Part shown: positions 471 to 41,548 of the stretch, piece by piece
Layout: each line of letters begins with the position of its first letter
Numbering within the stretch: the stretch's first letter is position 1
Assembly (NCBI GenBank): GCA_963727525.1
Contig: CAVSGO010000008.1
Location: forward strand, 160,001-224,000
Reading direction: 5' to 3'
Source: an uncultured bacterium
GTDB taxonomy: Bacteria > Krumholzibacteriota > Krumholzibacteriia > LZORAL124-64-63
DNA: 64,000 nucleotides
Notes under the pieces: model-generated
Databases searched by the model: none
Told to the model about the DNA's origin: nothing
The model's input: the letters and a program-made list of their open reading frames with translations, nothing else
Program-made: the position numbers and the translations under genes

Positions 471-649
471 GCGGTTTCGTATTCCTTTTATGATGATATC
501 GGAATCACAATATCTAAAAAATCATTGCGGCATTGCCACCGGGGACCTCGTTTGTTAAGGTCATGCGGTCGCATCATGTCCACCTGACGACGATCCCCTC
601 GCCTTCGGGAGGGATCGCGCGGGGTTTTCGTGTACGTGAGGAGAACCCG

Positions 650-3600
650 ATGCGCTGCCGCACTGCGCTCGTCTCTCTGGCTCTCGTCGTGTCGTGTTTC
701 GCGGTCGTGGCGCCCTCGCCGGCCCGCGCTGCGCGCATAGATCCGGAACTCCAGCGCATTCTCGACGAGCACGCGAAGATGGAGATCATCCCCGTCATCA
801 TGCTCTATCCCGAGAGTGCCGAGGGCACCCTCGACAGTCTCGACGTGCAGCTCGAGATGGCGGTGCCGTCGAAGCGGCGCGATGGCGTGATCGTGGCGAT
901 GAAGAAGCACGCGCGCAAGATCCAGTCCGACGCGTGGGCGATCCTGGAGGATCCTGATCATCCCGGCGTGCTCGCCTACTCGGAGATGCTCTACATGGCC
1001 AACGCCATCGCGTTCGGTGGCGATTCCCAGCTCATCCTCGCCGTGGCTGGCAACAAGAGCGCGGACGATGCGGTGCTCTTCTTCGACAAGGATTACGATC
1101 TGCTGACAGCGCAGCGGCAGGCCGCGCCGCGGCAGGACGACGGCATCAAGTCGGCGCGAGGCGACACCGTCTGGAACGTCAAGGCCATCCACGCCGATCG
1201 TGTGTGGAACGAACTGGGTTACAAGGGCGACGGGATCATCGTCGGGCACGTTGACACCGGGGTGTGGATGACCCATCCCGATCTGCGCGACCATATCTGG
1301 GTGAATCCGGCAGAGATCCCGGACAACGGCGTGGACGACGATGGAAACGGCTACGTGGACGACGTCCATGGCTGGGACTTCGGCGACCACGACAACGATC
1401 CCACCGACGACGCCGCCAACGCGGGGCACGGCACCCATACCGCCGGCACGCTTGCCGGCGACGGCACGGGCGGTATCCAGACCGGCGTGGCGCCCGATGC
1501 CACGATCATGCCGTGCAAGGTCTTCAACCAGGCCGGCGGCGGTTCGCTCGGCTCGATCTGGGAGGCGCAGCAGTACTGCGCCGAGAACGGGGCCCGCATC
1601 ATCACCATGTCGGTGAGCATCCGCGGCGATATCCCCACCCAGTTCCTGCGCAACGACCGCTATAACGCGCTGAGCCTGCGCAGCGCTGGTGTCACGGTCT
1701 TCAACTCCTCGGGCAACGACCACGGCGTGTTCGCGCCGCCGATCGAACTGGGCATGACGGCGCGGATCCCGGCGCCCTGGCGACCGGGCGTGCCCTACAG
1801 TTCCGCCGGCGGGATCATCTCGGTCGGCGGCACCGCGTACAAGAGCGACGCGATCTGGAGCGGCAGCAGCCAGGGGCCGGCCGACTGGGGTCAGGTGGAT
1901 CCGTGGTTCGACTGGCCGTACGATCCAGGCACCGGACTCGTGAAGCCGGACATCGTGGCGCCCGCTCAGGGCATCAATTCCACCTTCCCACCGAGCCTCT
2001 ACAGCGGCGAGACGTGGACGGGCACGTCCATGGCCTGCCCGCATGCCGCGGGCGTGGCGGCGCTCATGTTGCAGAAGAATCCCACGCTCTCGCCCGCGGG
2101 CATCGACAGCACGCTGGAGATGTCGGCGATCGATCGGGGCGATGCCGGCAAGGACAACGTCTTCGGCGCGGGCATGCTCGATGCCTACGCGGCCGTGTCC
2201 GCCGTGTCGATGGCGCAGGTGCCGAACCTCGAGGAGGTGGCATTCCTGCCCGATCCCGACGGCAATCAGGTGCTCGATCCGGGCGAGCTGCCCGGCATCG
2301 TCTTCACGCTGGCCAACGTGGGGCAGGTCGCGGCCACGAACGTCATCGGTCGGTTGCGCGTGGTGTCGAACCCGTTCGTGGCGATCTCCGGACAGTTCGG
2401 CAGCGATCGGGCCTCATTCCCCGACCTCGCGCCGGGTGAACAGGCCTCCAATGCGGCGTCGCCTTTCAAACTCGTGGTGTCCACCGCCGCTCCGCAAGGC
2501 TTTCCATTCACACTGCTGTTGACAGTGATGACCGGCGAAGGCTTCGAGCGCACGTTCGACATTCCCACCGCCGTCGGTTTGCCGGAGTTCCGGACCCACG
2601 ACGTGGGGCACGTGTACCTCACGGTCACGGACCAGGGCGGGGTGGGATACCTCGACGATTCCCGGGCCATCGGCCAGGGCATGGGTGTACAGGGGCAGGA
2701 GAGCGCGCTCTTCATCTCCTCGTTGTGGGCAGGGACGGACGCGTCGTATGTGTGCAACAACGACCTCACGGGCAACGGGGCCGATCCCGTGGAGTGGCGG
2801 ACGCGACTGATCCCGGTGGGCCGGGTGGCGGTGGCGTCGGGGCCGCCCTCGGCGCAGACATTCTCGGCCGCCTTCACCGACAGCGGTCACGCGAATCCGC
2901 GGGGCATCGAGGTGCGGCAGATCTCCTGGGCCCATCCGGACCCGCCCTACGACGATGTGGTCATGGTGCAGTACGCGATCGTCAATACCGGTGACGCGAC
3001 GATCACGGATTACTATGCGGGTCTATTCGCCGACTTCGATGTCATGGATTCGTTGCACGACGTGGGCGGTGTCGACACGGCGAATCGCGCGGTGTGGATC
3101 AAGTCCCTGGACGGCCCGTGCTATGGCGTGGCGGTGCTGGGCGACACGCCCGTCAGCAATATCTCGCTGATCGACAACCTCGTCTACATCTACGCCGACA
3201 GCTACATGCACGATGACGACAAGATGCGCTTCCTGCGCGGCGACCTGACCCAGGGCACGACAGCTCAGGAGTCGGACTGGTCGAGCGTGGCCGCGGCGGG
3301 GCCGTTCACGCTGGCTCCGGAGAGCGTGGTGCTCGTGACGTTCGCGTTCGTATACGGCGACGACGAGGCCCACTTCCTCGCCAACGTGCAGGCGGCCAAC
3401 AACGGGTACTCGCCCGTGGTAGCCGTGGATGACGGCCCGCGCGAGCTGCCCGCCAGCGTGCGGCTGCAGCAGAATCTCCCCAACCCCTTCAATCCCGACA
3501 CCGCGATCCGCTACACCGTGCCCACGTCCGGCGCCGTGGATCTCGCCGTGTACGATGTGAGCGGACGGCGGGTGCGCACCCTCGTCACGGGCACCGTGGC

Positions 3601-3730
3601 CGCGGGCGAGCACACGGTGCACTGGAACGGCCGCGACGAGAACGGCGGACTGGTACCTTCGGGGCTCTACCTCTACCGGGTAGTGGGCCACGGCGCCACG
3701 CTCACGCGCAAGATGATGCTCGTGAAGTGA
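650..3730 (+). CDS. Secreted S8 (subtilisin-like) serine peptidase with C-terminal FlgD-Ig domain
   Basis: Catalytic motifs VDTG, GHGTH, GTSMA; signal peptide; RBS GAGGAG before ATG 650; C-terminal PNPFNP...WNGRD motif. Confidence 0.92.
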   Translation: MRCRTALVSLALVVSCFAVVAPSPARAARIDPELQRILDEHAKMEIIPVIMLYPESAEGTLDSLDVQLEMAVPSKRRDGVIVAMKKHARKIQSDAWAILEDPDHPGVLAYSEMLYMANAIAFGGDSQLILAVAGNKSADDAVLFFDKDYDLLTAQRQAAPRQDDGIKSARGDTVWNVKAIHADRVWNELGYKGDGIIVGHVDTGVWMTHPDLRDHIWVNPAEIPDNGVDDDGNGYVDDVHGWDFGDHDNDPTDDAANAGHGTHTAGTLAGDGTGGIQTGVAPDATIMPCKVFNQAGGGSLGSIWEAQQYCAENGARIITMSVSIRGDIPTQFLRNDRYNALSLRSAGVTVFNSSGNDHGVFAPPIELGMTARIPAPWRPGVPYSSAGGIISVGGTAYKSDAIWSGSSQGPADWGQVDPWFDWPYDPGTGLVKPDIVAPAQGINSTFPPSLYSGETWTGTSMACPHAAGVAALMLQKNPTLSPAGIDSTLEMSAIDRGDAGKDNVFGAGMLDAYAAVSAVSMAQVPNLEEVAFLPDPDGNQVLDPGELPGIVFTLANVGQVAATNVIGRLRVVSNPFVAISGQFGSDRASFPDLAPGEQASNAASPFKLVVSTAAPQGFPFTLLLTVMTGEGFERTFDIPTAVGLPEFRTHDVGHVYLTVTDQGGVGYLDDSRAIGQGMGVQGQESALFISSLWAGTDASYVCNNDLTGNGADPVEWRTRLIPVGRVAVASGPPSAQTFSAAFTDSGHANPRGIEVRQISWAHPDPPYDDVVMVQYAIVNTGDATITDYYAGLFADFDVMDSLHDVGGVDTANRAVWIKSLDGPCYGVAVLGDTPVSNISLIDNLVYIYADSYMHDDDKMRFLRGDLTQGTTAQESDWSSVAAAGPFTLAPESVVLVTFAFVYGDDEAHFLANVQAANNGYSPVVAVDDGPRELPASVRLQQNLPNPFNPDTAIRYTVPTSGAVDLAVYDVSGRRVRTLVTGTVAAGEHTVHWNGRDENGGLVPSGLYLYRVVGHGATLTRKMMLVK

Positions 3731-3981
3731 TGCCGTATCAGCGTCGCCGTGCGGGGAATCTGCCGCGCGCCCGCGACTGGAATCGACCTTGCATCACCAC
3801 CGGGCCGGAGCCGAGAGGCGACCGGCCCGGTTCTCGTGTACCCACCAGACGCACCGGGCGGTTGCTGCCTCGTTGTTTCTCGTGACGGCGTGTCGCGCAG
3901 CGTCGGGCCGCGTGCGCGTATGGAACATCGATGTCGGGCGGCACACTCACGCCGCGCGACACTGGACCAGGTGGTGCCACG

Positions 3982-6390
3982 ATGCTGCGTTTTGCCTGCT
4001 TGCTCGCCGTCGGCGTTGGCTTATGCCTGCCGGCGACCTCCGGAACCGCCCTGGCGGGTGCCTCCGCACCGCACCCCATGCCGGCGCATCCGGATCTGAT
4101 CCGGACGCTCGGCCCCACCAGGGTCGCCGCCCTCCAGCGCGCCGGATTGCCGGAGCGCGAGGGCTACGAGATGATGACCAGGAGCCTGCGCCGGACGCAC
4201 CTGGCCGCCGACAAGGCCCGCACGAACGGCACCGGCTCCTGCCTCTTCATTCTCTGGACGTTCCCCGACCACACGGCCGACACGGCGGATCACCCGCGCG
4301 GCGACTACGAGGACATGTTCTTCTCGATCGGCACCTACCCCACCGGCAGCATGAACGACTTCTACCTCGAGGCAAGCCACGGCACCTACCAGATCGGGGG
4401 TGTCGTGAGCGGCTGGACCACGTCCTCGCACACGTATGCGAGCTACGCGAACGCTGATGGCACGCAGGACTATTACACCTGCAAGGAGATGATCCGTGAC
4501 GTCATCGCGCAGCTCGATCCGGTGGTCGACTTCGCGCAATTCGACAACGATGGCCCGGATGGCATTCCCGACAGTGGCGACGACGACGGGAGCGTCGACT
4601 CCATCTTCTTCATCCACGCCGGCCCCGGCCAGGAAGCCTCCGGCAGCACCCAGGACATCTGGTCGCACGCCTGGTCGTTCTGGGACCTGACGACGAACGA
4701 CGGCGTGGACATCGGGCGGTACTCCGTGGAGCCCGAGGAGTTGCCGAGCGGGGACATGAGCACGATGGGCGTGTTCGCGCACGAGTACGGTCACGTGCTC
4801 GGCCTACCCGATCTCTACGACACCGACTATAGCTCGAGCGGTATCGGCGAGTGGGGCCTCATGTCGGGCGGTTCGTGGAACAGCCGCCCCGGCGACCTCG
4901 GCGGAAGCTGTCCGGCGCAGATGACGGCCTGGAGCAAGGCGCAGCTCGGTTGGGTGACACCGGTGGCCATCACAGCCACCACCACCGACCTGGTGCTGCC
5001 GGCCGCCGCCACACATGCGGTGGCGTACCGCGTGTGGCGAGACGGGGCCGCAGGCAGCGACGAGTACTTCCTCATCGAGAACCGCCAGAACGTGGGCTTC
5101 GACGCCGGGCTCGTGCGCCGTCAGGTCGACTACGGCCTGCCCCTGGCCGATGGCCTCTTGCTCTATCACGTCGACGACGCCATGGGCAGCAATACCAACG
5201 ATCACCACCGCCTCCTCGACGTCGAGGACGCCAGCCCCTGGATCCTGAACGACGGCAGCGCGCGCGAGAATCTCGACGGCGTGATCGACTACGGCGTGCG
5301 GCGCTACGTCTGGAGCTATAACCGCGGCGACAACGGCGACACGTGGCCGGGCTTCTCCGCCGTCAACGGCGATTCGACCGACTGGCTGTCGCCCCGCGAT
5401 CGCGATCGCTTCGCCGACGACACCACGCCGGGCGCCGAGGACTACGCCTGCGCGCCCACCGGCGTGGCCATCACACACATCGTGCTCAGTGGCGACGACG
5501 TGGTGGCCGACGTGGAGATCAACACGCCGCAGATCAGCACGCCGGCCGTGCCGGCCAGCGTGGTCTGGGACTTCGAGGACGGCATGCAGGACCTGCGCGG
5601 CTGCAATGCCGTCGCCCACTTCGACCAGACCCAGGCTGGAACCTGCGGCGGCCCGGGTGGCCTGTGGTTCGGCACCACGGGCTGGGACTACTGCGGCGGC
5701 GCGGGCTACGGCAACAACTGGGACGACGCCGTCGCGGTGGCGGCGCTCGTGGGTATCGACGCGGCGCCGCAGGTCATCCTGACGCACCGCTACGAGACCG
5801 AGTCGGGCTACGACTTCGCGCGCCTGGAGGTGCGGGCTGCCGACGTGGGTGCGGCCTGGACCACGCTCGGCTCGTTCAGCGGCAGCGCGAACTGCCGCAC
5901 CGATACCTGGACGATTCCGCCCACAGTGCTCGAGGCCGGCCGCGTGGGCGCCACCGGCAACGCCAAGGTCGAGCTGCGAATGCGGCTGACAAGCGACGGC
6001 TCCTACTCGCCGGAAGACGGCAACTTCTGCGGCGTGGGCTGGTGGGTCGATCAGCTCGAGGTCACCGGCACACCCACCGGTGTCGACGAGTTGCCAGGTG
6101 CGATGCCCACGGTGGCGCAGCTCCGCCCGCCGGTGCCCAATCCGTTCAATCCGCTCACCGTGCTGCCTTACTTCGTACCCACCGGCGCGCGCGCCGTGAC
6201 ACTGCGCGTGTATGACGCGCGCGGCAGCGCGGTGCGCATGCTCGTGTCGGGACCGGCCGCCCCCGGCTGGCAGGAGGCGCGCTGGGACGGACGCGACGAC
6301 GGCGGCAACCGCGTGGCGAGCGGCCTGTACTTCGCGACGCTGCAGGTCGACGGCACGCAGCGCACGCAGAAGGTCGCTCTCGTGAAGTGA
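3982..6390 (+). CDS. M6 family (immune inhibitor A-like) metalloprotease with C-terminal FlgD-Ig domain
   Basis: HEYGHVLGLPDLY zinc motif, EYFLIENRQ, signal peptide, PNPFNP...WDGRD C-terminus. Confidence 0.9.
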   Translation: MLRFACLLAVGVGLCLPATSGTALAGASAPHPMPAHPDLIRTLGPTRVAALQRAGLPEREGYEMMTRSLRRTHLAADKARTNGTGSCLFILWTFPDHTADTADHPRGDYEDMFFSIGTYPTGSMNDFYLEASHGTYQIGGVVSGWTTSSHTYASYANADGTQDYYTCKEMIRDVIAQLDPVVDFAQFDNDGPDGIPDSGDDDGSVDSIFFIHAGPGQEASGSTQDIWSHAWSFWDLTTNDGVDIGRYSVEPEELPSGDMSTMGVFAHEYGHVLGLPDLYDTDYSSSGIGEWGLMSGGSWNSRPGDLGGSCPAQMTAWSKAQLGWVTPVAITATTTDLVLPAAATHAVAYRVWRDGAAGSDEYFLIENRQNVGFDAGLVRRQVDYGLPLADGLLLYHVDDAMGSNTNDHHRLLDVEDASPWILNDGSARENLDGVIDYGVRRYVWSYNRGDNGDTWPGFSAVNGDSTDWLSPRDRDRFADDTTPGAEDYACAPTGVAITHIVLSGDDVVADVEINTPQISTPAVPASVVWDFEDGMQDLRGCNAVAHFDQTQAGTCGGPGGLWFGTTGWDYCGGAGYGNNWDDAVAVAALVGIDAAPQVILTHRYETESGYDFARLEVRAADVGAAWTTLGSFSGSANCRTDTWTIPPTVLEAGRVGATGNAKVELRMRLTSDGSYSPEDGNFCGVGWWVDQLEVTGTPTGVDELPGAMPTVAQLRPPVPNPFNPLTVLPYFVPTGARAVTLRVYDARGSAVRMLVSGPAAPGWQEARWDGRDDGGNRVASGLYFATLQVDGTQRTQKVALVK

Positions 6391-10075: not shown

Positions 10076-10510
10076 TCAGGCCCGGTGGTAGGGCATGCCC
10101 CGCATGATCGTCACCCCCCGGTAGATCTGCTCCACGAGCAGCGCCCGCGCCCACTCGTGCGTCAGGGTGAGGGACGATAGCCGCATGACCCTGTCGGCGC
10201 GCTCGCGCACTGCCGCCCCGAGCCCATCGGCCCCCCCGACGAGAAAGGCCACGCTGCCGTGAGCCCCGAGCAGGCGGGCCATGTCCGCACTCGTCACGTC
10301 GTCGCCATGCTCGTCCATGGCCACCACGTAGGTCGCCGAGGCCTCTCCCCCCAGCCGCCGCACCATTTCGCGTCCCTCCCGCTCGGGGTCCTGGTCCTTC
10401 AGTTCCACGACCTCGCACGGCGCAAGGGGGCGCAGGCGACGAAGGTATTCAGAGGTGAGGTGGGAGAGGTGGGGGTCTTTGACCCGCCCCACCGCAATCA
10501 GGCGTATCAC
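10076..10510 (-). CDS. rlmH: 23S rRNA (pseudouridine-1915-N3)-methyltransferase
   Basis: SPOUT motifs FLVGGADG, LSSLTLTHE, EQIYRG...PYH. Confidence 0.95.
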   Translation of the reverse strand: MIRLIAVGRVKDPHLSHLTSEYLRRLRPLAPCEVVELKDQDPEREGREMVRRLGGEASATYVVAMDEHGDDVTSADMARLLGAHGSVAFLVGGADGLGAAVRERADRVMRLSSLTLTHEWARALLVEQIYRGVTIMRGMPYHRA

Positions 10511-10703: not shown

Positions 10704-11081
10704 ATGCACACTCCCCTCGCCATCACCCCCGTCGCCCCCGCCATGGTTCACCTGGCCGCGTTCGTCGCGTCCGGGGTGGCGGTGGCCGCGGTCATCGTGG
10801 GGGTGCGGCGCTGGTGGCTGGGGAAGTTGCCGGTGGCCGATGCGCCGGTCGCCGACCGGGCCGGGGCGCGGCAACGCGACGTGCGCTGGCGAGCCGCCGT
10901 GGCGCTCGCGGCAGGCGTGGCAGCAGCAGCGGTGCTCATGCCGGCGCTGGTGGCGTTGCGCCAGCTCTATGCGTTGCCGGGCTTCGGGGCGCGGCTCGTG
11001 GTGCTGCTGGTGGCGTTGCTGCTGCTGCTGGTGGCCGCGTTACTGGCGCTACTGCTGGCCGATCCGGGCGAGGATACCTGA
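10704..11081 (+). CDS. Divergent NuoA-like 3-TM protein
   Basis: Three TM segments; 'VRW...LMPALV' aligns by eye to NuoA 'VRFY...LFPWAV'; first gene of the nuo-like cluster. Confidence 0.55.
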   Translation: MHTPLAITPVAPAMVHLAAFVASGVAVAAVIVGVRRWWLGKLPVADAPVADRAGARQRDVRWRAAVALAAGVAAAAVLMPALVALRQLYALPGFGARLVVLLVALLLLLVAALLALLLADPGEDT

Positions 11082-11084
11082 GTC

Positions 11085-11942
11085 ATGTCCGCTACCTTGC
11101 ATGCCGCCGTCCTGGTGTTGCCGACCCTGGCTCTCGTGAGCGTGTGGCCGGAGGTGGACGCCTGGCTCGATCGCCGTCTCGCGACCGAGTCGCGCGAGGT
11201 GACGGGAAACTGGCGAGAGAGCTTGTGGCGTCTGGGACCGCGCGGGCGCGGGGGCTGGTTGCGCTTCGGGGCGTTGCTGCTGGCGCTGGCGCCTTTGCCG
11301 GCAAGCGCGCATCTCGTGGGGGCCGATCTCGACGCGGGACTCGCCTGCGTGCTGGCCGCAGGGTTGCTGGCGCTCGCGGGCGCCTGGCTCGACGATCCCC
11401 AAGAGGTGACAGCGCGTCTGCCGGTGGTGGCCATTGGCGGGCTGGCGCTGGCGCTGGCCGGGGTGCCCATCGTGGCGCGGGTCTCGAGCCTGAATCTGAG
11501 CGACATCGTCATTGCGCAGCAGGGGGGACTCGGCAACTGGTTCCTCTGGCGCGACCCCTTCCTGCTCCTGGTCACCGCGGGATACGTGGCCACGGCGGCG
11601 TGTCTGGTGCCGGATCTCGGCGCCCTGCGCGGTGTGACCGATGCGGCCGGGCCGGCGGCCTGGACGCTCGTCACGAGCGTGCTCGGCGCGTGCCTCTTCC
11701 TTGGCGGCTGGTGGGGCGTGGTGCCGCAGCTCGACGTGCCGCAGCTCGGTGTGGCGCCGATCGTGCATCTGGGGTGCAAGGTGTTCGTGCTGGCGGCGGC
11801 CCAGATCTGGTTGCGCGGACGGCTGCCGCAGCCGCCGCGAGGAACGCGGAGCGAGCCGCCGGTGCGTCTGCTGCTGCTGGCCACGCTGGCCGGCGCGGTG
11901 GGGTCGACCCTGTGGATGGTACTCTCGGGCGAGGTGCTGTGA
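11085..11942 (+). CDS. Divergent NuoH-like membrane subunit
   Basis: SLNLSDIVIAQ...NW, LFLGGW and K......IWLR..LP motifs typical of NuoH. Confidence 0.75.
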   Translation: MSATLHAAVLVLPTLALVSVWPEVDAWLDRRLATESREVTGNWRESLWRLGPRGRGGWLRFGALLLALAPLPASAHLVGADLDAGLACVLAAGLLALAGAWLDDPQEVTARLPVVAIGGLALALAGVPIVARVSSLNLSDIVIAQQGGLGNWFLWRDPFLLLVTAGYVATAACLVPDLGALRGVTDAAGPAAWTLVTSVLGACLFLGGWWGVVPQLDVPQLGVAPIVHLGCKVFVLAAAQIWLRGRLPQPPRGTRSEPPVRLLLLATLAGAVGSTLWMVLSGEVL

Positions 11943-11946
11943 GGTC

Positions 11947-12435
11947 ATGACGGAATTCGTCTTCGTGGTGCTCGCGGGCATCGTCCTCGCGGCGGCGGGC
12001 GTGGCCGTGCTGGCCGATGTGGCCATGCTCAGGCGCCGGGCGCTGCTGCTGCAGGTGCTGGCGCTCGCCGCGCTCGTGCTGCTGGTCGGCGCGGATCTGC
12101 CGGCGTGGGCAGTTCTCGTGGGCGGGCTCACCGGCGGAGGCGTGGTGCTCGCCGCGCACACGCGCGATGCGGACGCCGCGGCGCGGACGTCGGCCGACCA
12201 GCGCGTGGTGCCGGCGGTGCTGGCGGCGCTGGTCTTCGCGGGGTTGTATTTCGTGGTCGCGACAGGGCACTGGAGTGGTGCGCAGCCCGAGGTGCCGGTG
12301 GCGCTCACGGCGCTGATCGGCGCGCGACTGCTCACGCGCGATCTCGTGGTGCTGGTCCTGCTGATCGTCTTTTTGGCCGGTGCCGTGGCGGGGGCGGCTC
12401 GACTGGCGGGACGTCCGCCGAGGGGGGGGGCATGA
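11947..12435 (+). CDS. Divergent NuoJ-like membrane subunit
   Basis: About 5 TM segments; C-terminal IGARLLT.......AVAGAARLA resembles NuoJ; RBS GAGG; position in cluster. Confidence 0.65.
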   Translation: MTEFVFVVLAGIVLAAAGVAVLADVAMLRRRALLLQVLALAALVLLVGADLPAWAVLVGGLTGGGVVLAAHTRDADAAARTSADQRVVPAVLAALVFAGLYFVVATGHWSGAQPEVPVALTALIGARLLTRDLVVLVLLIVFLAGAVAGAARLAGRPPRGGA

Positions 12436-12728
12436 GCTGGGGATTGGCCCCGTTTCTGGCCGTTGGGGCGGCCCTGGCCTCTCTGGGGTGTCTGGCCCTT
12501 ATGGTGCGGCGGGACCTGCGTGGCTTGCTGCTGGGCCTCCTGCTCCTGCTGGCCGGGGCGTGCCTCGACTTCGCTGCGGCGTCGCGACTCCTCGTGGACG
12601 AACTCGATGGGCACCTGGCGGTGCTCGTGATCGTGGTGCTCGGCGTGGCCCAGGTGCTCGTGCTCACGGCGCTGGCGCGCGAAGCCGGCGACGATGACGA
12701 CACGATCATGCCCGGAGATGCGCCTTGA
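12432..12728 (+). CDS. Divergent NuoK-like subunit
   Basis: 98 aa, 3 TM; ...VRRDL...FAAASR....DGH pattern of NuoK; ATGA overlap with the upstream gene. Confidence 0.75.
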   Translation: MSWGLAPFLAVGAALASLGCLALMVRRDLRGLLLGLLLLLAGACLDFAAASRLLVDELDGHLAVLVIVVLGVAQVLVLTALAREAGDDDDTIMPGDAP

Positions 12729-14629
12729 GTGCCGGCGCCGTCCTGGTGCAGGTCGCGGTGATCGTCGCCTTGCCGACGCTCGCCGGGCTGAGCCTGATGG
12801 CGGTGGGCTCGCGCCATGGTCGTCAGCCGGTGAGCGCGTGGATCGCCGCCGGCGCGGCTGCGGTGGCGGCGCTGCTGGCGGTGCGCCTCGTTGCCTGGGC
12901 GGCCACTGGGGGTGCGTCCGCGCTGCCCGTGGGTGGTCAGCATGCGTGGCTCACTTCCGACAACGTCGCGATCGCCGTGGGTGTGCATGTCGATGGTGCC
13001 GCGCTGGCGCTGCTGTTGCTGACGACGGTCGTGCCGATGCTCGTGCTCGTCCACCGCGCTTCGCAGCCTGCGGACGTGCCCGACGCGGCGCCGGCCGCCG
13101 TACTCCTGCATGCGGCAGCGCTTGGCGGACTCGGCGTGGCCAGCGGACTCATTCCCCTCGTGACGTTCTGGTTGCTGGGCGGACTCGCCGCCGCCGTGCT
13201 CGTGGCGACGGGGCAGCCGCGCGCCACGGCGCTGGCGGCAGGCCGCGGCCTCTTCCTGGCCGAGGTCGTGGGCGTGATGGGGCTGGGACTGGCGGCCGTG
13301 ATCTGCCGTGTCGTCTGCTCGCCGGCCGATCCGTTCTCGCCCGCGACCACGCCGCTCGCGAGCGCGTGGCCGGCCGGGCCGATGCGGTCCCTGGCCGGGG
13401 CCGGGCTCCTGCTCGCGGCGGCCGCGCGCGCGTCGCAGTTGCCGCTCGCGTGGTGGCTGCCACGCGGGGGTGTGGCGCCGGCGTCGGCGCGCGCCGTCCT
13501 GCTGAGCGGTATGCACGGCGCGAGTGGACTCGTGCTCCTGTTGCGCTTCAACCTGCTCATGGACATGCCGGTGCGGATCGCCGCGCTCACACTGGGCGGG
13601 ACAACCGCGTTCGTACTCGCGTGCGTGGGGTTGGCACAGACGTCGCGGTCGCGCGCGGTGGGGAGCCTGGCTGCCCTGTCGCTCGCCGCGGCCCTCAGCG
13701 TGCTCGGCGCCGGGGGCGATCCTCGCACGGTGCTCGTACTCCTGCTCTCGCAGACGCCGGCGCTTGCCGTGCTGGCGCTGGTCACCGAAGGAAGCCTGAT
13801 CGGACGGCGCGGCACGACCGTCGCCTGGGTGATCGCGGCCACGGTGGTGGTGGGAATGCCCGGCACGGGCGGATTCCTCGCCTGGCGCGATGCGCTGGGC
13901 ACCCTGTTCACCGAGTCGGCACCCCTGCTCGTGGCCTTCGTGGTGCTCTGGCTGAGTCGTGTGGCGACTGTCGCGGTGCTCGTGCGATGGTGGCTGCACG
14001 ATCGGATGCGCAGCGAGTCGGCGGCACCGGCTGCGCCGGCTCCGGGGGGCGCGTTGATGGCGCTCGCGATATTCGCCTTGGCGAGCCTGCTCTGGCATGG
14101 CAGTGGTGGGGGCTGGTTGAGTCGGTTGCTCAATGCTGATCCGCAGGCCTCGCTGTTTCTGCCGCCGCCGTTGCCGTTCTGGCTGGCGGCTGCGCTACCG
14201 CTGGCCGCGATCGTCGTCGGCGCGCTGCTCGGCTGGACGGGGCGCACACGCTCGCCGGCTGAGGGATGGCCCTGGCCGCCGGCGCTGCACCACGTGCCGG
14301 CACGGCTGCGTCTGATGGTGGCCGGGCCGGGGCCGCTGGCCGCGGCGATGTCGCATGCATTGACGACGGTGGCGCGTGCCGTGGCGGGCTGCGACCGGGT
14401 CGTGGCCGTGGGCATCGTCGACGGTTGCGGCTGGATCGTGAGGGTCGTGGCGCGGATGGTCATGCTGATCGACCAGGGGCTCACTCGTCTCTTGACGGAA
14501 GGCACGGAACTGGTCTTCGATCGTGCCGGAGCGGCGATGCAGAGGGTGCAGACCGGTCGGCTCCGCGACGGCATGATCGTGGCCGTGGCCGTGGGAGTGG
14601 GCGTGGTGCTCGTCATGGTGGCGCGGTGA
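12725..14629 (+). CDS. Divergent NuoL-like antiporter-type subunit
   Basis: SQLPLAWWLP (cf. KSAQFPLHVWLP), GMPGTGGF, C-terminal VQTGRLR; TTGA overlap. Confidence 0.8.
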   Translation: MSAGAVLVQVAVIVALPTLAGLSLMAVGSRHGRQPVSAWIAAGAAAVAALLAVRLVAWAATGGASALPVGGQHAWLTSDNVAIAVGVHVDGAALALLLLTTVVPMLVLVHRASQPADVPDAAPAAVLLHAAALGGLGVASGLIPLVTFWLLGGLAAAVLVATGQPRATALAAGRGLFLAEVVGVMGLGLAAVICRVVCSPADPFSPATTPLASAWPAGPMRSLAGAGLLLAAAARASQLPLAWWLPRGGVAPASARAVLLSGMHGASGLVLLLRFNLLMDMPVRIAALTLGGTTAFVLACVGLAQTSRSRAVGSLAALSLAAALSVLGAGGDPRTVLVLLLSQTPALAVLALVTEGSLIGRRGTTVAWVIAATVVVGMPGTGGFLAWRDALGTLFTESAPLLVAFVVLWLSRVATVAVLVRWWLHDRMRSESAAPAAPAPGGALMALAIFALASLLWHGSGGGWLSRLLNADPQASLFLPPPLPFWLAAALPLAAIVVGALLGWTGRTRSPAEGWPWPPALHHVPARLRLMVAGPGPLAAAMSHALTTVARAVAGCDRVVAVGIVDGCGWIVRVVARMVMLIDQGLTRLLTEGTELVFDRAGAAMQRVQTGRLRDGMIVAVAVGVGVVLVMVAR

Positions 14630-14669
14630 GTCCGGCACACGGGTGCGCCGAACGCCGGGAGCGACGAAC

Positions 14670-16169
14670 GTGATACCGTCCTACTTGCTGTCGTGGATGA
14701 TCTTCGTGCCGCTGGGCGGCGCGGCGGTGATCGCGTGCCTGCCGGCGCGACGGCACGAGGTGATCCGCACGGTGGCGGCCTGCACGTCGGCGCTGCCGCT
14801 GGTGATGGGCGTGATCCTGCTGCTGCGCTTCCGGGCCGACGCCGTGACCTTCCAGTTCGTCGAGCACTACACGTGGATTCCTGCGTTCGGTATCGAGTAC
14901 TTCGTGGGCGTGGACGGTATCAGCCTGCCGTTGCTCGCGCTCACCGTACTGCTGGTGTTCCTCGCGCTCGTGACGTCGTGGCGCGTGGGGCAGGCCGTGA
15001 AGGGCTACTTCGCACTCATCCTCGTGCTGGAGACCGGTCTCATCGGCGCGTTCGGCGCGCTCGACGCGTGCCTGCTGTGGGTGTTCTGGGAAGTCGTGCT
15101 GGTGACGGTGTTCTTCCTGGTGGCCTTCTGGGGGCAACCCGGCCGCGAGACCGCCGCCACGCGCTTTCTCATCACCACGCAGGTCGGCGCCATGCTGCTG
15201 CTCATCGCGATCCTTGCGCTCCGGCAGCACGTGTCCGATCCCGTGACGGGTCGGCCGACGTTCAACCTCATCCTGCTGATGGATCAGGCGAATCACGACC
15301 AGTGGCTTTCGGTGGTGGCGACGCGCCATCTGCTGTGGTGCGGCATCGCGCTGGGCTGCGCGGCGCTGCTGCCGGTGGTGCCTCTGCACGTCTGGCTGCC
15401 ATCGTTGCATACACACGCCCAGCCCTCGATCTCGCTGCTCGTGGCCGGCGTGGTGGTGAAGCTGGGGGCCTACGGACTGCTGCGCATCGCCCTGCCCGTG
15501 CTGCCCGACGCCACGGCGTGGGGTGCGCCGGTCCTCGTGTGGCTGGGCGTGGTCGGCGTGCTCTGGGGCGGGTTCTGCGCTCTGGCAGCCGGCGAGCTGA
15601 GTCGCGTGGTGGCGTTCGGCAGCCTGAGCATCCTGAGTTTCGTGCCGCTGGGACTGGGGTCGCTCACGTCCGAGGGCCTGCACGGCGCCGCCGCGCTGCT
15701 GGTTGGCCACGGGCTCGTGCTGGGCATGCTCTTCGTGGCCGTGGGCGGGCTGCGCGACCGCGCCGGCCACCTCGACCTGCCGCGCTGGGGTGGTCTCTAC
15801 CGCCGCGCGCCGGTGCTCGCCGCGTTCTTCACCGCCGCCCTGCTGGCCGTGGTGGGCTTGCCGGGACTCGCCGTGTTCCCCGGCGTGGTGCTCGTGCTGC
15901 TGGGCGCCTTCGCGCGCGCGCCGCTGACGGCGGTGCTCGCCGCCGGCGGTCTCGTACTCGGCGCGTCGTGGGTGGTGCGCGTGGTGCTGCAAGTGTGCCT
16001 ACGCGAGCCGGTCGTCGACCTCGGCGACAACCCCGCGATCACGGCGCCGGAACTGGGTGTGATGGTGCCCCTCGGCGCACTCGTCCTGGCCCTCGGCCTG
16101 TATCCGCAACCCCTCCTCGTCATGGGCCGCACCGTGCTCGACGCTCTGCTGGCGGCGATCGGCGGCTAG
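14670..16169 (+). CDS. NuoM-like antiporter-type subunit
   Basis: WIPAFGIEYFVGVDGIS, FWE, PLHVWLP, KLGAYGLLR, GLYPQP. Confidence 0.9.
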   Translation: MIPSYLLSWMIFVPLGGAAVIACLPARRHEVIRTVAACTSALPLVMGVILLLRFRADAVTFQFVEHYTWIPAFGIEYFVGVDGISLPLLALTVLLVFLALVTSWRVGQAVKGYFALILVLETGLIGAFGALDACLLWVFWEVVLVTVFFLVAFWGQPGRETAATRFLITTQVGAMLLLIAILALRQHVSDPVTGRPTFNLILLMDQANHDQWLSVVATRHLLWCGIALGCAALLPVVPLHVWLPSLHTHAQPSISLLVAGVVVKLGAYGLLRIALPVLPDATAWGAPVLVWLGVVGVLWGGFCALAAGELSRVVAFGSLSILSFVPLGLGSLTSEGLHGAAALLVGHGLVLGMLFVAVGGLRDRAGHLDLPRWGGLYRRAPVLAAFFTAALLAVVGLPGLAVFPGVVLVLLGAFARAPLTAVLAAGGLVLGASWVVRVVLQVCLREPVVDLGDNPAITAPELGVMVPLGALVLALGLYPQPLLVMGRTVLDALLAAIGG

Positions 16170-16368: not shown

Positions 16369-17715
16369 ATGAGGACGATCCGCCAACTCCCGCAGATCCT
16401 GGGACTCGCCCTCGTGGCGACGGCGCTGCTGGCGTCCTCGCCGGCCGCCAGGTCGGCCCCCGTCGCGACCGAGCCGAGCTTCTCGCTCGAGACCATCCGG
16501 ATCGTGCCCGACGACCGCGAGACGGTGGCGATCGTGAGCCGCGACCTGCCGGTGCGCACGGGCCAGACCGTCACCGCCGGCATCCTCGTGCAGACGCGCG
16601 ACTACCTCACCGGATCGGGGCACTACCGCACCGTGGACGTGTACACGGAGCGCGGCAGCCGTCCGGGCGCCATCGTGCTGGTCGTGGAAGTGGAGCGCGC
16701 GCGCGCGGTTCGTCTCGAGACAGGGCTCGGCTTCGAACCGCTGAGGAGCTGGTACCTCAACATCATCGGCATGCGGGTCGTGAGCCCCCTCGGCCGCGGC
16801 GGCCTCTTCCGGGCCGGCTTCCATCAGGGTCTGCGCAGCGGTGGACTGTATCTCGACCTCGACGTTCCCGCGCTCCTGGGCCCTGGCCTCGACCTCGTGG
16901 CCGACGGCGGCGCCTACGAGGAACTGTGGGACGTGCCTGCCCGCGATGTGGCCTACTACCAGTCGATCTGGCACTTCCGTCTGGTGCCGGGCGTACGCAA
17001 ACGCCTGCGTGACGGCCCGTCCATGTTGCTGTGGTCGGGATTCTCGAGTTCACGCGTCGATCGCGAGTTGCAGAGCGACGACCAGGACGCGCCCGACGTC
17101 GACCCGGCCGCCCTCGTCCCGCAGATTCCGCACACCACGAGTTTCTGGGAGAGCCGGCTCGAGGTGCAGCTCGATCGTCGCGACCCCCTGCGCCCCTGGC
17201 AGGCGGGACACTGGCTGGGCTGGACGCTGAAGGGCGCCCTCAGCGATCGCGGCGACGGGTTCTGGGGTACGTCAGTCGATGCCCACGTGGCCGTGCCCGT
17301 GGTGGGGAACGCCGCGGCCGCTTTCCGCGCGCGGGCCGACTATGCCGGTCCCGGCACGCCCTATTACATGCGTCCGATCCTCGGTGGCGTGCGCAGTCTG
17401 CGTGGCTTCACGATGGGCGGACTCAGCGGCCCGCGCGGTGCACGTGCCACCTGGCAGGTCAACGGCGAGTGGCGACAACCGCTGGCAGGGCGTGACCCGC
17501 GGCGGCCTGCCGTCATCGGCACCGTGTTCGCAGACGTGGGCCAGTTCTGGGACGCCGACGGGGCGTCGCACGCGCTCGCGGCCAGCATCGGGTACGGCGC
17601 GCTCTTTCGCATCCGCTGGCTGCAGACCGTCAACGTGGAGATCGCGTATCCAATCACGAGGGACCTGACGGGCAATCCCGTGGTCCTGCACGTCAGTCTG
17701 GGCAGGTCGTTCTAG
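16369..17715 (+). CDS. Omp85/BamA-TamA family outer-membrane protein
   Basis: Signal peptide, POTRA-like N-terminus, LGG..SLRGF, VFADVG, C-terminal SLGRSF. Confidence 0.85.
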   Translation: MRTIRQLPQILGLALVATALLASSPAARSAPVATEPSFSLETIRIVPDDRETVAIVSRDLPVRTGQTVTAGILVQTRDYLTGSGHYRTVDVYTERGSRPGAIVLVVEVERARAVRLETGLGFEPLRSWYLNIIGMRVVSPLGRGGLFRAGFHQGLRSGGLYLDLDVPALLGPGLDLVADGGAYEELWDVPARDVAYYQSIWHFRLVPGVRKRLRDGPSMLLWSGFSSSRVDRELQSDDQDAPDVDPAALVPQIPHTTSFWESRLEVQLDRRDPLRPWQAGHWLGWTLKGALSDRGDGFWGTSVDAHVAVPVVGNAAAAFRARADYAGPGTPYYMRPILGGVRSLRGFTMGGLSGPRGARATWQVNGEWRQPLAGRDPRRPAVIGTVFADVGQFWDADGASHALAASIGYGALFRIRWLQTVNVEIAYPITRDLTGNPVVLHVSLGRSF

Positions 17716-17719
17716 CACG

Positions 17720-18361
17720 ATGCTTCGGGGGTGGTGGCATCGCGGGATCTTCATGGTCGCGCTCGTGAGCGCGACGGCGCTGGCCTATGCCGCGCAGCGA
17801 GGTGAGATCGTGAGCTTGCACCCCTATCGCGACACCGGCTGGTTGCGCCTCGACCTGCGTGCGCGCAACCTCCTCGACGACCGTACCGTGTCAACCATCG
17901 AGAGCGGGTTGCCAGGCACCTGCGTCTTCCATCTGCGCGTGGAGAACCGCGACGGTGAGGTGGTGGTGGAACGGCTGGTCGAGCTGAGCCTGCGCTTCGA
18001 TCTGTGGGAGAACCACTACGTGCTCGATGGTGAGGGCGAGTCGCTCACCCTGCCATCGCTGGCCGCGGCCGACTCTGCCTGGTCCACATTGCACGGTCAG
18101 CGCCTCTGTGCGCTCGACCGACTCGCCCCGCAGGACGAGTACCGCGTCCTGGTGCGCACGGCCGTGCAACCACTGGCGCCCGAGGATCGCGAGCGTCTGA
18201 GCCACTACGTGAGCCGCAACAGCGGGGGCGGAGGCGAGGAGGTGGCGCTGGATCTGGGTGCCCTCATCAGCGGCATCTTCGGGCGTCACGGCAGTGGCGA
18301 GCGCATCGTGGAATACGCCGGCCGCTACTTCCGGCGCGACGACCTGGAGGTCCGGCCATGA
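17720..18361 (+). CDS. DUF4390 domain protein
   Basis: IESG.P...F, LRFDLW..HY pattern; upstream of an NtrY-like kinase. Confidence 0.7.
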   Translation: MLRGWWHRGIFMVALVSATALAYAAQRGEIVSLHPYRDTGWLRLDLRARNLLDDRTVSTIESGLPGTCVFHLRVENRDGEVVVERLVELSLRFDLWENHYVLDGEGESLTLPSLAAADSAWSTLHGQRLCALDRLAPQDEYRVLVRTAVQPLAPEDRERLSHYVSRNSGGGGEEVALDLGALISGIFGRHGSGERIVEYAGRYFRRDDLEVRP

Positions 18362-19842
18362 GCCTGCGCTTGCGCCTCGCCATGCTGATGGCCTTGCTCA
18401 CGGTGTTGCCGACGCTCCCGGCGGCCCTGGTGGCGCGCAACGTCATCTCCCGCACACTCGATCTCGGCTTCTCCACCGACGTGGATGCCGCGCTCGACGC
18501 CGGCGTGCGTCAGGCGCGGGCGAACTTCGTGCTGCAGCGCGCGGCCCTCGGCGATTCCCTCGCGACCTGGGCGCGCGAGACGCTCGGCGAGGATCTCGAT
18601 CCCGCCGCGGTGCGCGGGCTCCCGGCCGACGATCCGCGCCTCGTCACCGCTCCCGGTGCCTGCGTGTTGCTCGACGAAGGCGACGGCCGGGTGCGCGTCG
18701 TGCGCGGCGATCCGCGGCACATGGTCGAACCTGGGACGTCGGCGCCCGACGAGCCTCCCCATCTCGTGTCGGCCACCATTGCGCTGTCCGGTGGTGGCTC
18801 GCTGGAAGCCCGTGCGCCTGTCGCGGCCACCTGGCGCGCCGACGCCCGCCAGCTCGCGACGAGCCTGCAAGCCATGCGCGGCCTGCAGGTGCAACGCGTG
18901 GAGCTGGAGCGCGGCTTCTGGCTGCCGTTCCTGGCGATCGTCGTCATCGGGCTCGTGGCTGCGCTGGCGGCGGCCGCGTGGTTGAGCCGCGGCCTCACCG
19001 TGCCCCTCGGTCACCTCGACGCCGCCGCCCGCGCGGTGGCGGCGGGATCCTGGGACGTGCAGGTGCCGCCCACCGGCAGCGGCGAACTGCGGCAGCTCGG
19101 GACGCGCTTCAATGCCATGGTGCGCACCCTCGACGCCCAGTCGCGCCGGCTCGTGGATCTGGAGACCATGGCCGGTTGGCGCGAGATGGCCCGCGCGCTG
19201 GCTCACGAGGTGAAGAACCCGCTCACGCCCATCCAGCTCACCGTGGAGGAGATCCGCGAGCGCTACCACGGTGACGATCCCGAGTACCGCACGTTGCTCG
19301 AGGAGTGCACGCGGATCATCGTGCACGAGGTGGAGAGCTTGCGCAACGTGGTGACTCGCTTTCGCGAATTCTCGCGGCCGGTGGAGCCGCACTTCGCCCC
19401 CGTAGACCTGAATCGGCTCGTCACGGAGATCGGCGCCCTGCAGCGCGACATGCGCGTGGAGGTGGACACGGCCCCCGATCTCGCGCCCATCCTCGCGGAC
19501 GACGACCAGTTGCGCCAGATGCTCATGAACCTGGCGCGCAATGCCCAGCAGGCCACCGCCGACCAGGCCGAGCCGCGCCTGCGTCTCGCCACTCGGGCCA
19601 CGCCGACGGGGGCGGTGGTCACCGTCGAGGACAGTGGTGACGGCGTGCCGGCGGCCGAGCGCGAGCGCATCTTCGAACCCTACCGCACCGGCAAGAGCGG
19701 CGGTCTGGGCCTGGGACTGGCGCTGGTCAAGGGCATCGTGCTGGCCCATGGCGGCGTGATCCGCGTGGACGACGGACCCAGGGGCGGCGCCCGCTTCGTG
19801 ATCGAGCTGCCGCGGGATCCCAACCCCAGGAGCGACGCATGA
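18358..19842 (+). CDS. NtrY-like HAMP sensor histidine kinase
   Basis: WREMARALAHEVKNPLTPI H-box, HAMP domain, N/G boxes. Confidence 0.92.
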   Translation: MSLRLRLAMLMALLTVLPTLPAALVARNVISRTLDLGFSTDVDAALDAGVRQARANFVLQRAALGDSLATWARETLGEDLDPAAVRGLPADDPRLVTAPGACVLLDEGDGRVRVVRGDPRHMVEPGTSAPDEPPHLVSATIALSGGGSLEARAPVAATWRADARQLATSLQAMRGLQVQRVELERGFWLPFLAIVVIGLVAALAAAAWLSRGLTVPLGHLDAAARAVAAGSWDVQVPPTGSGELRQLGTRFNAMVRTLDAQSRRLVDLETMAGWREMARALAHEVKNPLTPIQLTVEEIRERYHGDDPEYRTLLEECTRIIVHEVESLRNVVTRFREFSRPVEPHFAPVDLNRLVTEIGALQRDMRVEVDTAPDLAPILADDDQLRQMLMNLARNAQQATADQAEPRLRLATRATPTGAVVTVEDSGDGVPAAERERIFEPYRTGKSGGLGLGLALVKGIVLAHGGVIRVDDGPRGGARFVIELPRDPNPRSDA

Positions 19843-21209
19843 ATCCGAGCATCCTCGTCGTCGACGACGAGCACAACATCCGCCGCAGCTTCGAGATCAT
19901 CCTCGGCGGCGCCGGCTTCACGGTCCGCGGCGCGGCGAGCGGGGAGGAGGGGCTCGAGGCGATCGCGGCCACCGTGCCCGACGTGCTCTTCCTCGACCTC
20001 CAGCTGCCGGGACTCGACGGCCTGGAGGTGCTGCGCCGCGTGCGCGCCGGTCATCCCGACCTACCGGTCGTCATGATCTCGGGCCACGCCACGATCGAGC
20101 GCGCGGTGGAGGCCACGCGCCTGGGGGCGTTCGACTTCGTGGAGAAGCCCTTCGGCCGTGAGCGCATCCTCGTGCTCGCGCGCAACGCCGCCGAATCGAG
20201 CACGCTGCGGCGCGAGGTGGCACGCCTGCGCGACGAGAAGCACGGCGCGATCCTCGGCGAGAGCCCGGCAATCCGCGAGCTGCGCGAGACGGTGGCGCGC
20301 GTGGCGGCCACGGGCACGCGCGTGCTCATCCTCGGCGAGAGCGGCACCGGCAAGGAACTCGTGGCCCGGGCTCTGCATGATGGCAGCACACGGGCGCGCA
20401 AGCCTTACGTGCGCGTGAACTGTGCCGCCATTCCCGAGGAGCTGATCGAGGCCGAGCTATTCGGCGCCGTGAAGGGCGCCTACACCGGCGCCGTGGCCGC
20501 GCGCGAGGGCCGCTTCGCCGCGGCCGACGGCGGCACGCTCTTTCTCGACGAGATCGGCGACATGAGCCTGCGCGCCCAGGCCAAGGTGCTGCGTGTGCTG
20601 CAGGAGGGCGAGTACGAGCCGGTGGGCAGCATGCAGACGCGCAAGGTGGATGTGCGCGTGGTCGCCGCCACCCACCAGGACCTCGCCGTCAAGGTCCGCG
20701 ACGGCGCGTTCCGCGAGGATCTCATGTTCCGCCTCAACGTGATCCCGATCCTCATGCCGCCGCTGCGCGTGCGCGAGGGCGACGTCCGACTGCTCGGCGA
20801 GCACTTCCTCGCGCACTACGCCGCGCGCCACGAGCTCCCGGCGCCGTCCCTCACGGGCGCGGCCTGGCGTCTGCTCGAGGCCTATGGGTGGCCCGGCAAC
20901 ATCCGGGAGCTGAAGAACCTCGTCGAGCGTCTCGTGATCCTGGGGGGCGGCGGCGGGATCGGCCCGGACGGCCTGCCGCACGAGATGCGCGGTACGGAGG
21001 CGACGGCCCGCCCAGACTCGGGCGCGACCACGGTGGCCGCGTACGATCATCTGCCCCTGCGCGATGCCCGCGACGCCCTCGAGCGCGATCTCATCCGCGC
21101 CGCCCTCGAACGCCATGCCGGCAACGTGTCGCGCGCGGCCGCCGATCTCGGTCTCGAACGCACGCACCTGCACAAGCGCATCCGGGCCCTCGGTCTGCGC
21201 GACGATTGA
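19839..21209 (+). CDS. NtrX/NtrC-family sigma-54-type response regulator
   Basis: REC domain, GESGTGKE, GAYTGA, FLDEIGD, C-terminal Fis HTH. Confidence 0.93.
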   Translation: MNPSILVVDDEHNIRRSFEIILGGAGFTVRGAASGEEGLEAIAATVPDVLFLDLQLPGLDGLEVLRRVRAGHPDLPVVMISGHATIERAVEATRLGAFDFVEKPFGRERILVLARNAAESSTLRREVARLRDEKHGAILGESPAIRELRETVARVAATGTRVLILGESGTGKELVARALHDGSTRARKPYVRVNCAAIPEELIEAELFGAVKGAYTGAVAAREGRFAAADGGTLFLDEIGDMSLRAQAKVLRVLQEGEYEPVGSMQTRKVDVRVVAATHQDLAVKVRDGAFREDLMFRLNVIPILMPPLRVREGDVRLLGEHFLAHYAARHELPAPSLTGAAWRLLEAYGWPGNIRELKNLVERLVILGGGGGIGPDGLPHEMRGTEATARPDSGATTVAAYDHLPLRDARDALERDLIRAALERHAGNVSRAAADLGLERTHLHKRIRALGLRDD

Positions 21210-36062: not shown

Positions 36063-36179
36063 GGTGATCGACCTCGGGATCGCGGGACATCGAGCACGAA
36101 TGTCCATTGTACCACATCAGTGCCGGTCGTCGCGGTTCCGCCTACCGTGTCAGGCATCACCGCGAACGAGGAGATGGCC

Positions 36180-37544: not shown

Positions 37545-37601
37545 CAGAGCGGCGGGTCGTCGTCTAGTATGCGCGGCAACCGTCAGCTCCGGAGGACCTC
37601 G

Positions 37602-40936: not shown

Positions 40937-41548
40937 ATGACCTTTCCGCAATCCTTCTATCGCTGGCGTCCGCATCCCTGGCACGGACTCGAGGTGGGGC
41001 CGCAGCCGCCCGAAGTCGTCACCGCGTACATCGAGATCACGCCCTACGATCTGGTGAAGTACGAGGTGGACAAGAGGACCGGGTACCTGCGTGTGGACCG
41101 GCCGCAGCGGACCTCGTCGCAGCCACCGGCGCTCTACGGTTTCATCCCACGCACGTTCTGCGGCCGGCGCGTGGGCGCGCTCTCGCCCGCGGCGGCACGC
41201 GGCGACGGCGACCCGCTCGACGTCTGCGTAATCAGCGAGCGCCCGATCAACCGCTCCGAGGTCATCCTCAGCGCCCGCGTGGTGGGCGGCCTGCGGGTGA
41301 TCGACCACGACGAGGCCGATGACAAGATCGTGGCCGTGCTCAACAACGACAACGTCTGGAGCCACGTGCGCGAGATCGCCGAGCTGCCGACCGCGCTGGT
41401 CGACCGACTGCGTCACTACTTCGCGACATACAAGCAGCTCCTGGGGGAACCCGCGCACCTGCTCGTGCAGGAGACGTACGCGGCGGCCGACGCCTTCAAG
41501 GTGATCGCCGCGGCCATGGCCGACTACGACGACGAGTACGGCGCCTAG
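40937..41548 (+). CDS. ppa: Inorganic pyrophosphatase (family I)
   Basis: HPWH, KYE.DK, YGFIP, GDGDPLD, DDKI. Confidence 0.93.

Follow-up and report, generated by a model that had tools for sequence, protein, structure and literature searches.

Can a complex I gene cluster lose every subunit of its catalytic core and still be kept as a set of membrane proteins? The question is raised by a nuo-like cluster in a 64,000-nucleotide stretch of DNA (hereafter the window, whose positions supply all coordinates given below) from an uncultured bacterium of the Krumholzibacteriota (GTDB lineage Bacteria; Krumholzibacteriota; Krumholzibacteriia; LZORAL124-64-63). The window spans positions 160,001 to 224,000 of contig CAVSGO010000008.1 in assembly GCA_963727525.1. 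The cluster encodes homologs of the membrane subunits of complex I, and none of the subunits NuoB, C, D and I. Judging from sequence comparison, we think it probable that this cluster is the relic of a membrane arm, catalytically dead but still translated under relaxed selection, and that its remaining role, if it has one, would be structural and not ion transport.

Between positions 10704 and 16169, six tightly packed open reading frames (ORFs) on the plus strand follow one another in the nuo order A-H-J-K-L-M. An earlier note on this DNA had described them in this way, and the description is confirmed by Pfam matches for H, K, L and M and by profile comparisons for J and A. The first operon slot is occupied by a strongly degenerate NuoA-like ORF of 125 amino acids (aa) at 10704-11081, which matches no Pfam family; its profile match to canonical NuoA is weak (68.5% probability, E = 4.6e-5) and spans 35 columns, which take in the motif of transmembrane helix 2 (TM2), loop and TM3. 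The NuoH-like ORF (11085-11942, 285 aa) lacks the quinone-site loop and passes PF00146 with 33.9 bits (cut-off 27). All 11 of its profile matches in the PDB are NuoH/ND1/NdhA chains (best 1.7e-10), as are all of the top 50 Foldseek matches (TMq 0.49-0.64) of its AlphaFold2 model, which has a predicted local distance difference test score (pLDDT) of 73.5. The NuoJ-like ORF of 163 aa, starting at 11944 (GTG) or 11947 (ATG) and ending at 12435, has no Pfam family and matches the canonical NuoJ profile over 150 columns (96.6% probability, E = 5.5e-10). It is followed by a NuoK-like ORF of 98 aa (12432-12728; PF00420, 33.9 bits, cut-off 26.1) and a NuoL-like ORF of 634 aa (12725-14629; PF00361, 29.9 bits, cut-off 21.5), with PF00662 remaining under its cut-off in the latter. 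All 12 PDB profile matches of the NuoL-like ORF are NuoL/ND5/NdhF chains; its C-terminal lateral-helix region is kept, and its last 115 residues are 31-36% identical to the corresponding end of NuoL in the relatives. Conservation within the cluster is highest in the NuoM-like ORF, which starts at 14643 or, more likely, at 14670 (giving 499 aa) and ends at 16169 (PF00361, 145.7 bits; E = 3.2e-74 against the PDB NuoM chain 8e9g_M).

The spacing of these ORFs is as close as the earlier note had stated. The gap between A and H is 3 nucleotides, that between H and J is 1 or 4, and that between L and M is 13 or 40, the latter value holding if M starts at 14670; the J/K and K/L junctions are 4-bp overlaps. 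The six genes do stand together as a unit, but the set is larger than was first described, as a seventh, NuoN-like gene of 503 aa had been overlooked at 39377-40888 on the plus strand. This displaced ORF passes PF00361 with 57.5 bits, has NdhB/NuoN chains as its top PDB matches (6.6e-22), and is 29-31% identical to the relatives' NuoN. Taken together, Pfam, profiles and synteny show that A, H, J, K, L, M and N are homologs of the complex I membrane subunits in canonical order, the support for A being weak. The GC content of the window is about 69%, at which chance long ORFs are plentiful; by family match, position and conservation, the six plus-strand ORFs are nevertheless considered to be genuine genes.

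The genes between these membrane subunits are missing. Canonical B, C, D and I queries gave no tblastn match at E ≤ 0.01 in the window or in seven related loci, in line with the earlier note, and no remnants of or spacers for these four genes remain in the cluster. The genome (4.66 Mb in 8 contigs, 96.7% complete) has two canonical nuo operons elsewhere, to which the cluster is additional. One, on contig C7, is complete with A, B, a fused CD, E, F, G, H, I, J, K, L, M and N. The other, on contig C3, is complete with A, B, a fused CD, H, I, J, K, L, M and N. By genome-wide tblastn, NuoB, C, D and I are found only inside these two operons, and the NuoD profile matches are distributed likewise. 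By its gene content, the window cluster is thus classified as a third, membrane-only nuo set of the genome. As a separate observation, the C3 operon (locus L005; genome G000, contig C3, 209.8-220.6 kb) is of the 11-subunit type with a fused nuoCD and has an unusually long NuoL of 756 aa. Judged by NuoD matches, an operon of this type is apparently present in one of the four sister-genus genomes that are at least 90% complete (G057).

The membrane subunits themselves have lost most of the residues on which complex I depends. Conservation was scored at the columns that are invariant in eight canonical sequences (six relatives plus the C3 and C7 copies), across the diverged clade to which the window cluster, its sister-genus counterparts and a metagenomic locus (L054) belong. 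The canonical copies are 56-92% identical among themselves, and the window proteins are 24-43% identical to them. Across the clade, A keeps 2-7 of 31 invariant columns (window copy 7, with 0 of 7 charged ones), H 18-23 of 77 (window copy 23, with 4 of 23 charged ones), J 2-10 of 22 (window copy 6), K 8-15 of 27, L 23-47 of 172 (window copy 47, with 5 of 28 charged ones), M 75-85 of 148 (window copy 85) and N 22-37 of 76. In H, the canonical segments 62-80 and 237-250 are missing. The protein is left without the loop that lines the quinone cavity in solved structures, and it does not carry the TM5-6 loop together with the conserved acidic residues of the quinone cavity and E-channel.

The losses in the antiporter-like subunits and in K follow the same direction. 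In the K of the window, the TM2 Glu is replaced by Leu and the TM3 Glu by Gln; among eight copies in the clade, the former is kept in one (L054) and the latter in none. The window M has Leu for the TM7 Lys and Val for the TM12 Glu, and keeps the TM5 Glu and the TM8 Lys. Across the clade, the TM7 Lys of M has become Leu and the TM12 Glu hydrophobic in all seven copies, and the TM5 Glu is Gln in one copy. None of the eight N copies keeps the TM5 Glu, the TM7 Lys or the TM8 Lys, and the TM12 Lys is Arg in the window. L has Arg in place of the TM7 Lys and retains neither the TM5 Glu nor the charged residues of TM8 and TM12. The cluster does not carry the Glu/Lys relay of complex I in NuoL/M/N, nor the two membrane Glu of NuoK. 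Lys, Asn, Tyr, Phe and Ile are almost purged from the diverged proteins. With no Q module, no quinone-site loop and no relay, the cluster is therefore unable to work as complex I.

These losses bear on two functional roles, a transporter and a swappable module, which the earlier note had entertained and which now appear unlikely, given that H no longer has its quinone loop and that A, H, K, L, M and N have been stripped of most of their conserved charged residues. As a swappable module, the cluster would offer an alternative membrane arm for docking to the Q and N modules of a complete nuo operon, and the two complete operons of this genome could in principle supply the peripheral arm. However, an H without the quinone-cavity loop, in which 19 of 23 conserved charged residues are gone, and an A without its conserved loop motifs are poorly suited to this task, and three of the four sister-genus genomes that are at least 90% complete have a single NuoD locus. 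We consider such docking hardly credible.

Alternatively, the cluster could be a stand-alone secondary cation/proton antiporter or pump resembling Mrp. The Mrp (Mnh/Pha) antiporter consists of NuoL/M/N-like and NuoK-like subunits with no redox module; it has no NuoH-like or NuoA-like subunits, and its charged relay residues are retained. The window cluster likewise includes the antiporter-like L, M and N, and its M retains the TM5 Glu and the TM8 Lys. In contrast to Mrp, however, it has H and A and has lost relay residues, most of those in L, M, N and K being hydrophobic or Arg throughout the clade. Only nuo-type Pfam families were found among the ORFs of the cluster, with no Mrp-specific small subunit of the MrpB/E/F/G type; H passes its Pfam family, and the derivation from nuo rather than Mrp, as the earlier note had it, stands. 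Furthermore, L and M can be lost altogether. An ion-pumping role is assumed in print for partial NDH-1 operons of actinobacteria (PMC3314556, PMC6676996, PMC6002675); for the window cluster, such a role seems very improbable to us.

Where did the cluster come from? Directly upstream lies an rlmH-like SPOUT methyltransferase gene (10076-10510, minus strand; PF02590, E = 1.9e-36), which serves as the synteny anchor. It is the last of three conserved genes, encoding a 622-aa protein, a PEGA-domain protein and RlmH, which are shared with five genomes of the same family and with a single genome from a different family of the class. In those six genomes, a full A-B-C-D-H-I-J-K-L-M-N operon comes directly after these upstream genes, and the same arrangement is found in two further loci. 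The rlmH-like gene product is 57-62% identical to that of the same-family gene directly before the complete nuo operon, 57-64% to that of the sister genus and 70% to that of L054. The window H, K, L, M and N all have their best matches in the rlmH-adjacent operon of the relatives. The NuoM-like protein, for instance, is 42-43% identical to the copies of that operon, 36-37% to the C3 and C7 copies of its own genome and 51-56% to those of the sister genus. In one further same-family genome (G011), neither an H nor an L match was found, and rlmH was undetectable too.

The cluster occupies the rlmH-adjacent slot of the relatives' complete operon and is therefore an in-place descendant rather than a duplicate. 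It is not the duplicated membrane arm that had been supposed; the shared synteny with rlmH and the two further upstream genes identifies the cluster as the in-place remnant of a third, ancestral 11-subunit operon. It has the same slot, the same upstream genes and the same order of membrane genes as the rlmH-adjacent 11-subunit operon (loci L017, L018, L020, L021, L022, L035 and L037), but it differs from that operon in lacking B/C/D/I, in its 24-43% identity, in the loss of the loop and of most relay residues, and in the displacement of N by 23 kb.

The diverged cluster is narrowly distributed. Short diverged H was found as full-length matches of 38-43% identity in all nine sister-genus genomes. 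In a search of 91 genomes of the family, 82 had a match to H at E ≤ 1e-5, and outside the sister genus only part of H aligned. At E ≤ 1e-16, the short diverged H was found in 7 of 208 genomes of the class, representing 2 of 81 genera. A protein search returned 18 further H-like proteins of 170-283 aa with 41-78% identity. A metagenome scan yielded one close locus (L054), the other 79 loci being at most 36% identical. Among 19 loci from a scan of a genome collection, 2 are of the diverged type and 17 look canonical, with at least one of B/C/D/I nearby or a full-length canonical H.

The relatives keep the block, as the earlier note had asked of them, but they also show part of the decay that would speak against it. 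Six sister-genus loci have a contiguous A-H-J-K-L-M-N with 4-bp overlaps, followed by a pyrophosphatase gene and a gene for a PMT_2 membrane protein. These two genes come after N in the window genome too, where the soluble inorganic pyrophosphatase gene lies at 40937-41548 on the plus strand (PF00719, E = 5.6e-43). The pyrophosphatase gene is a conserved neighbor directly 3' of N in the sister genus and in L054 (73-78% identity), is on the same strand in all seven related loci, and is absent from the relatives' canonical nuo loci by tblastn. In L054, whose H is 62-67% identical, the order is A-H-J-K-N-pyrophosphatase, with L and M absent. The K-like (11151-11435) and N-like (11432-12664) genes of that locus overlap by 4 bp, and the deletion has therefore restored the junction type that K/L and M/N have elsewhere. 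L is shorter than the roughly 720 aa of canonical copies both in the window (634 aa) and in the sister genus (about 420 aa). N varies between 410 and 503 aa across copies, and M is 499 aa in all seven copies.

The separation of M from N by about 23 kb of ordinary chromosomal genes (16170-39376) is found in this genome only. In the six sister-genus loci N directly follows M, and in L054 it follows K. The 23-kb block encodes Omp85, DUF4390, a histidine kinase, a sigma-54 activator, ABC/MacB proteins, LolA-like proteins, a TetR regulator and others, and no transposase or integrase family was found among its scanned ORFs. Two parts of this block are described here in their own right. At 16369-21209, on the same strand directly after M, genes for an Omp85-family barrel, a DUF4390 protein, a HAMP histidine kinase and a sigma-54-dependent response regulator form a neighborhood specific to this genome. 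At 37569-39317 on the plus strand, a 582-aa ORF that matches no Pfam family immediately precedes the NuoN-like gene, 59 nucleotides separating the two.

Are these genes simply decaying? Plain decay is the main rival of a relic arm that is still made. According to this explanation, the cluster would be a pseudo-operon with no role at the protein level. Its frames would stay open since stop codons are rare in DNA of 70% GC, and breaks in the frames would be harmful because truncated membrane proteins would be toxic or because genes further downstream (pyrophosphatase in the relatives; here Omp85 and others) would suffer polar effects. Several observations agree with it, namely the extreme divergence and the loss of key residues, the drift of composition to GC-rich codons, the lineage-specific truncations with the deletion of L and M in one lineage, and the position of the pyrophosphatase gene. 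Moreover, a weak consensus scan found no sigma-70-like promoter between N and the pyrophosphatase gene. However, the proteins carry marks of constraint that count against it. H has 34 invariant columns among 18 homologs, including Trp, Pro, Asp, Gln, Lys and Arg. M has 174 invariant columns and no indel in seven copies, and is 68-81% identical within the sister genus, which is comparable to rlmH. The indels inferred in N (7-22 internal blocks) are all in frame, and the contrast between the three codon positions persists, with a GC content of 0.46-0.57 at second and 0.85-0.91 at third positions. On balance, decay with no protein-level role strikes us as unlikely, although it has to be taken seriously.

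Further signs of constraint are consistent with proteins that are still made. The reading frames are intact in all eight loci, and the 14 internal indel blocks inferred in L are in frame as well. Within the diverged clade, the numbers of invariant columns are 36 in H, 39 in L, 174 in M and 25 in N, and many of these columns hold Trp, Pro, Asp, Arg, His or Lys. The model of H, as its Foldseek matches show, still has the NuoH fold.

A series of events that would account for the relic arm can be proposed. The ancestor may have been a complex I operon of 11 subunits, without NuoEFG, beside rlmH in this bacterial family. The genes nuoB, C, D and I would have been cleanly excised in the common ancestor of this genus and the sister genus, and A, H, J, K, L, M and N would afterwards have evolved very fast under GC-biased drift. 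Through the loss of the quinone-site loop of H and of most proton-carrying Glu and Lys residues, the arm could presumably neither reduce quinone nor pump by the known mechanism. The proteins would still be made and inserted into the membrane, probably packing as an arm similar to that of complex I, under purifying selection that appears relaxed but real, bearing hardest on M and H and least on A, J and K. Individual lineages would keep trimming the arm, as suggested by the shortened L, the deletion of L and M in one lineage and the shrinking N.

A number of points count against a relic arm that is still translated and maintained. Long open frames are common by chance in a genome of 70% GC. A, J and K are weakly constrained, with 3-6 clade-invariant columns, and at least one lineage (L054) does without L and M. 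A search of 5.8 billion proteins returned no M above 58% identity, as against 14 relatives of H at 59-79%. The composition of the diverged proteins is shifted to GC-rich codons (Lys 0.1%, Asn 0.3% and Tyr 0.4%, versus 2.2, 2.1 and 3.6% in canonical copies), which is the outcome expected from relaxed selection. The proportion of synonymous differences (pS, Nei-Gojobori) is about 0.5 in every pair and thus saturated, so that it yields no dN/dS estimate. In the M and H trees, the diverged group forms one long branch with 100/100 support, which the trees do not place inside the relatives' orthologs, and the orthology therefore rests on synteny. Finally, the TM-helix labels of the key residues are those that we take to hold for the complex I of E. 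coli and T. thermophilus, mapped by alignment.

Membrane-only nuo operons are not new as a kind, contrary to the suggestion of the earlier note that the cluster was possibly undescribed. A partial NDH-1 operon with the order nuoA-(hypothetical)-H-J-K-L-M-N is reported from marine actinomycetes such as Salinispora, Streptomyces SM17/SM18 and Kocuria flava S43 (PMC3314556, PMC6676996, PMC6002675), where it is described as horizontally acquired and assumed to be ion-pumping. In the available parts of these three papers, no biochemical characterization of the operons is mentioned. A survey counts 2,171 species with an incomplete complex I (PMC12361115). Like the partial nuoAHJKLMN operons of Penn and Jensen (2012) and later papers, the cluster described here is a membrane-only set in nuo order with a complete nuo operon elsewhere in the genome; it is contiguous in the sister genus, and in the window six genes stand together with N 23 kb off. 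Unlike the actinomycete operons, as far as these can be compared by description, the window cluster appears to have arisen in place by deletion, and it has no extra ORF between A and H, which are 3 nucleotides apart. The loss of relay residues is documented for the window cluster; the comparison with the actinomycete operons is one of descriptions and not of sequences. Synteny argues for an in-place origin independent of the actinobacterial partial operons. A literature search, by no means exhaustive, turned up no study of residue loss in partial nuo operons. The new elements are the origin in place, which can still be seen, the evidence of inactivation at the level of residues, and the series of variants. 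Separately, a locus in a metagenome-assembled genome (MAG) of the Kineosporiaceae (L134; G212 contig C47, 26-44 kb) was considered as a partial nuo operon and rejected, the weak third NuoH-like match in it sitting in a hydrogenase-like B-L-N-C-D cluster.

We may speculate further that the stripping of charges and redox modules from complex I is a recurrent route to a non-pumping membrane machine, perhaps also in actinomycetes. In that event, the conserved H-A-J-K-N core would be retained because it serves structure or conformation, for example by organizing respiratory complexes or membrane domains, and M and L would be distal additions that are optional. This extension is doubtful at present, and we offer it as a conjecture.

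Other features of the window lie apart from the cluster. Three large secreted-looking proteins encoded at 533-6390 and 34314-36107 (an S8 subtilase, an M6 peptidase and a repeat-rich protein of 597 aa) have a FlgD Ig-like domain at their C-termini. A 922-aa protein encoded beside the C3 nuo operon (L005:3195-5963) terminates in this domain too, which may be a lineage-wide sorting or anchoring tag. At 59705-63457 on the minus strand, a 1250-aa ORF has a very high first-position GC content of 0.80 and only a weak N-terminal match to SMC_N, and several ORFs on the opposite strand overlap it.

It is routine to annotate membrane-only nuo operons as NADH dehydrogenase, and they are also presumed to be ion pumps. 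The present case, in which the ancestral operon is still found in relatives, suggests that such a cluster can be catalytically dead yet maintained. It is also a warning for metabolic reconstruction from MAGs, as counts of nuo genes may overstate respiratory capacity. The cluster is, moreover, a natural experiment that sets the parts of the membrane arm kept for folding and assembly apart from those kept for proton transfer. If the proteins are made, the question becomes what a charge-less membrane arm does.

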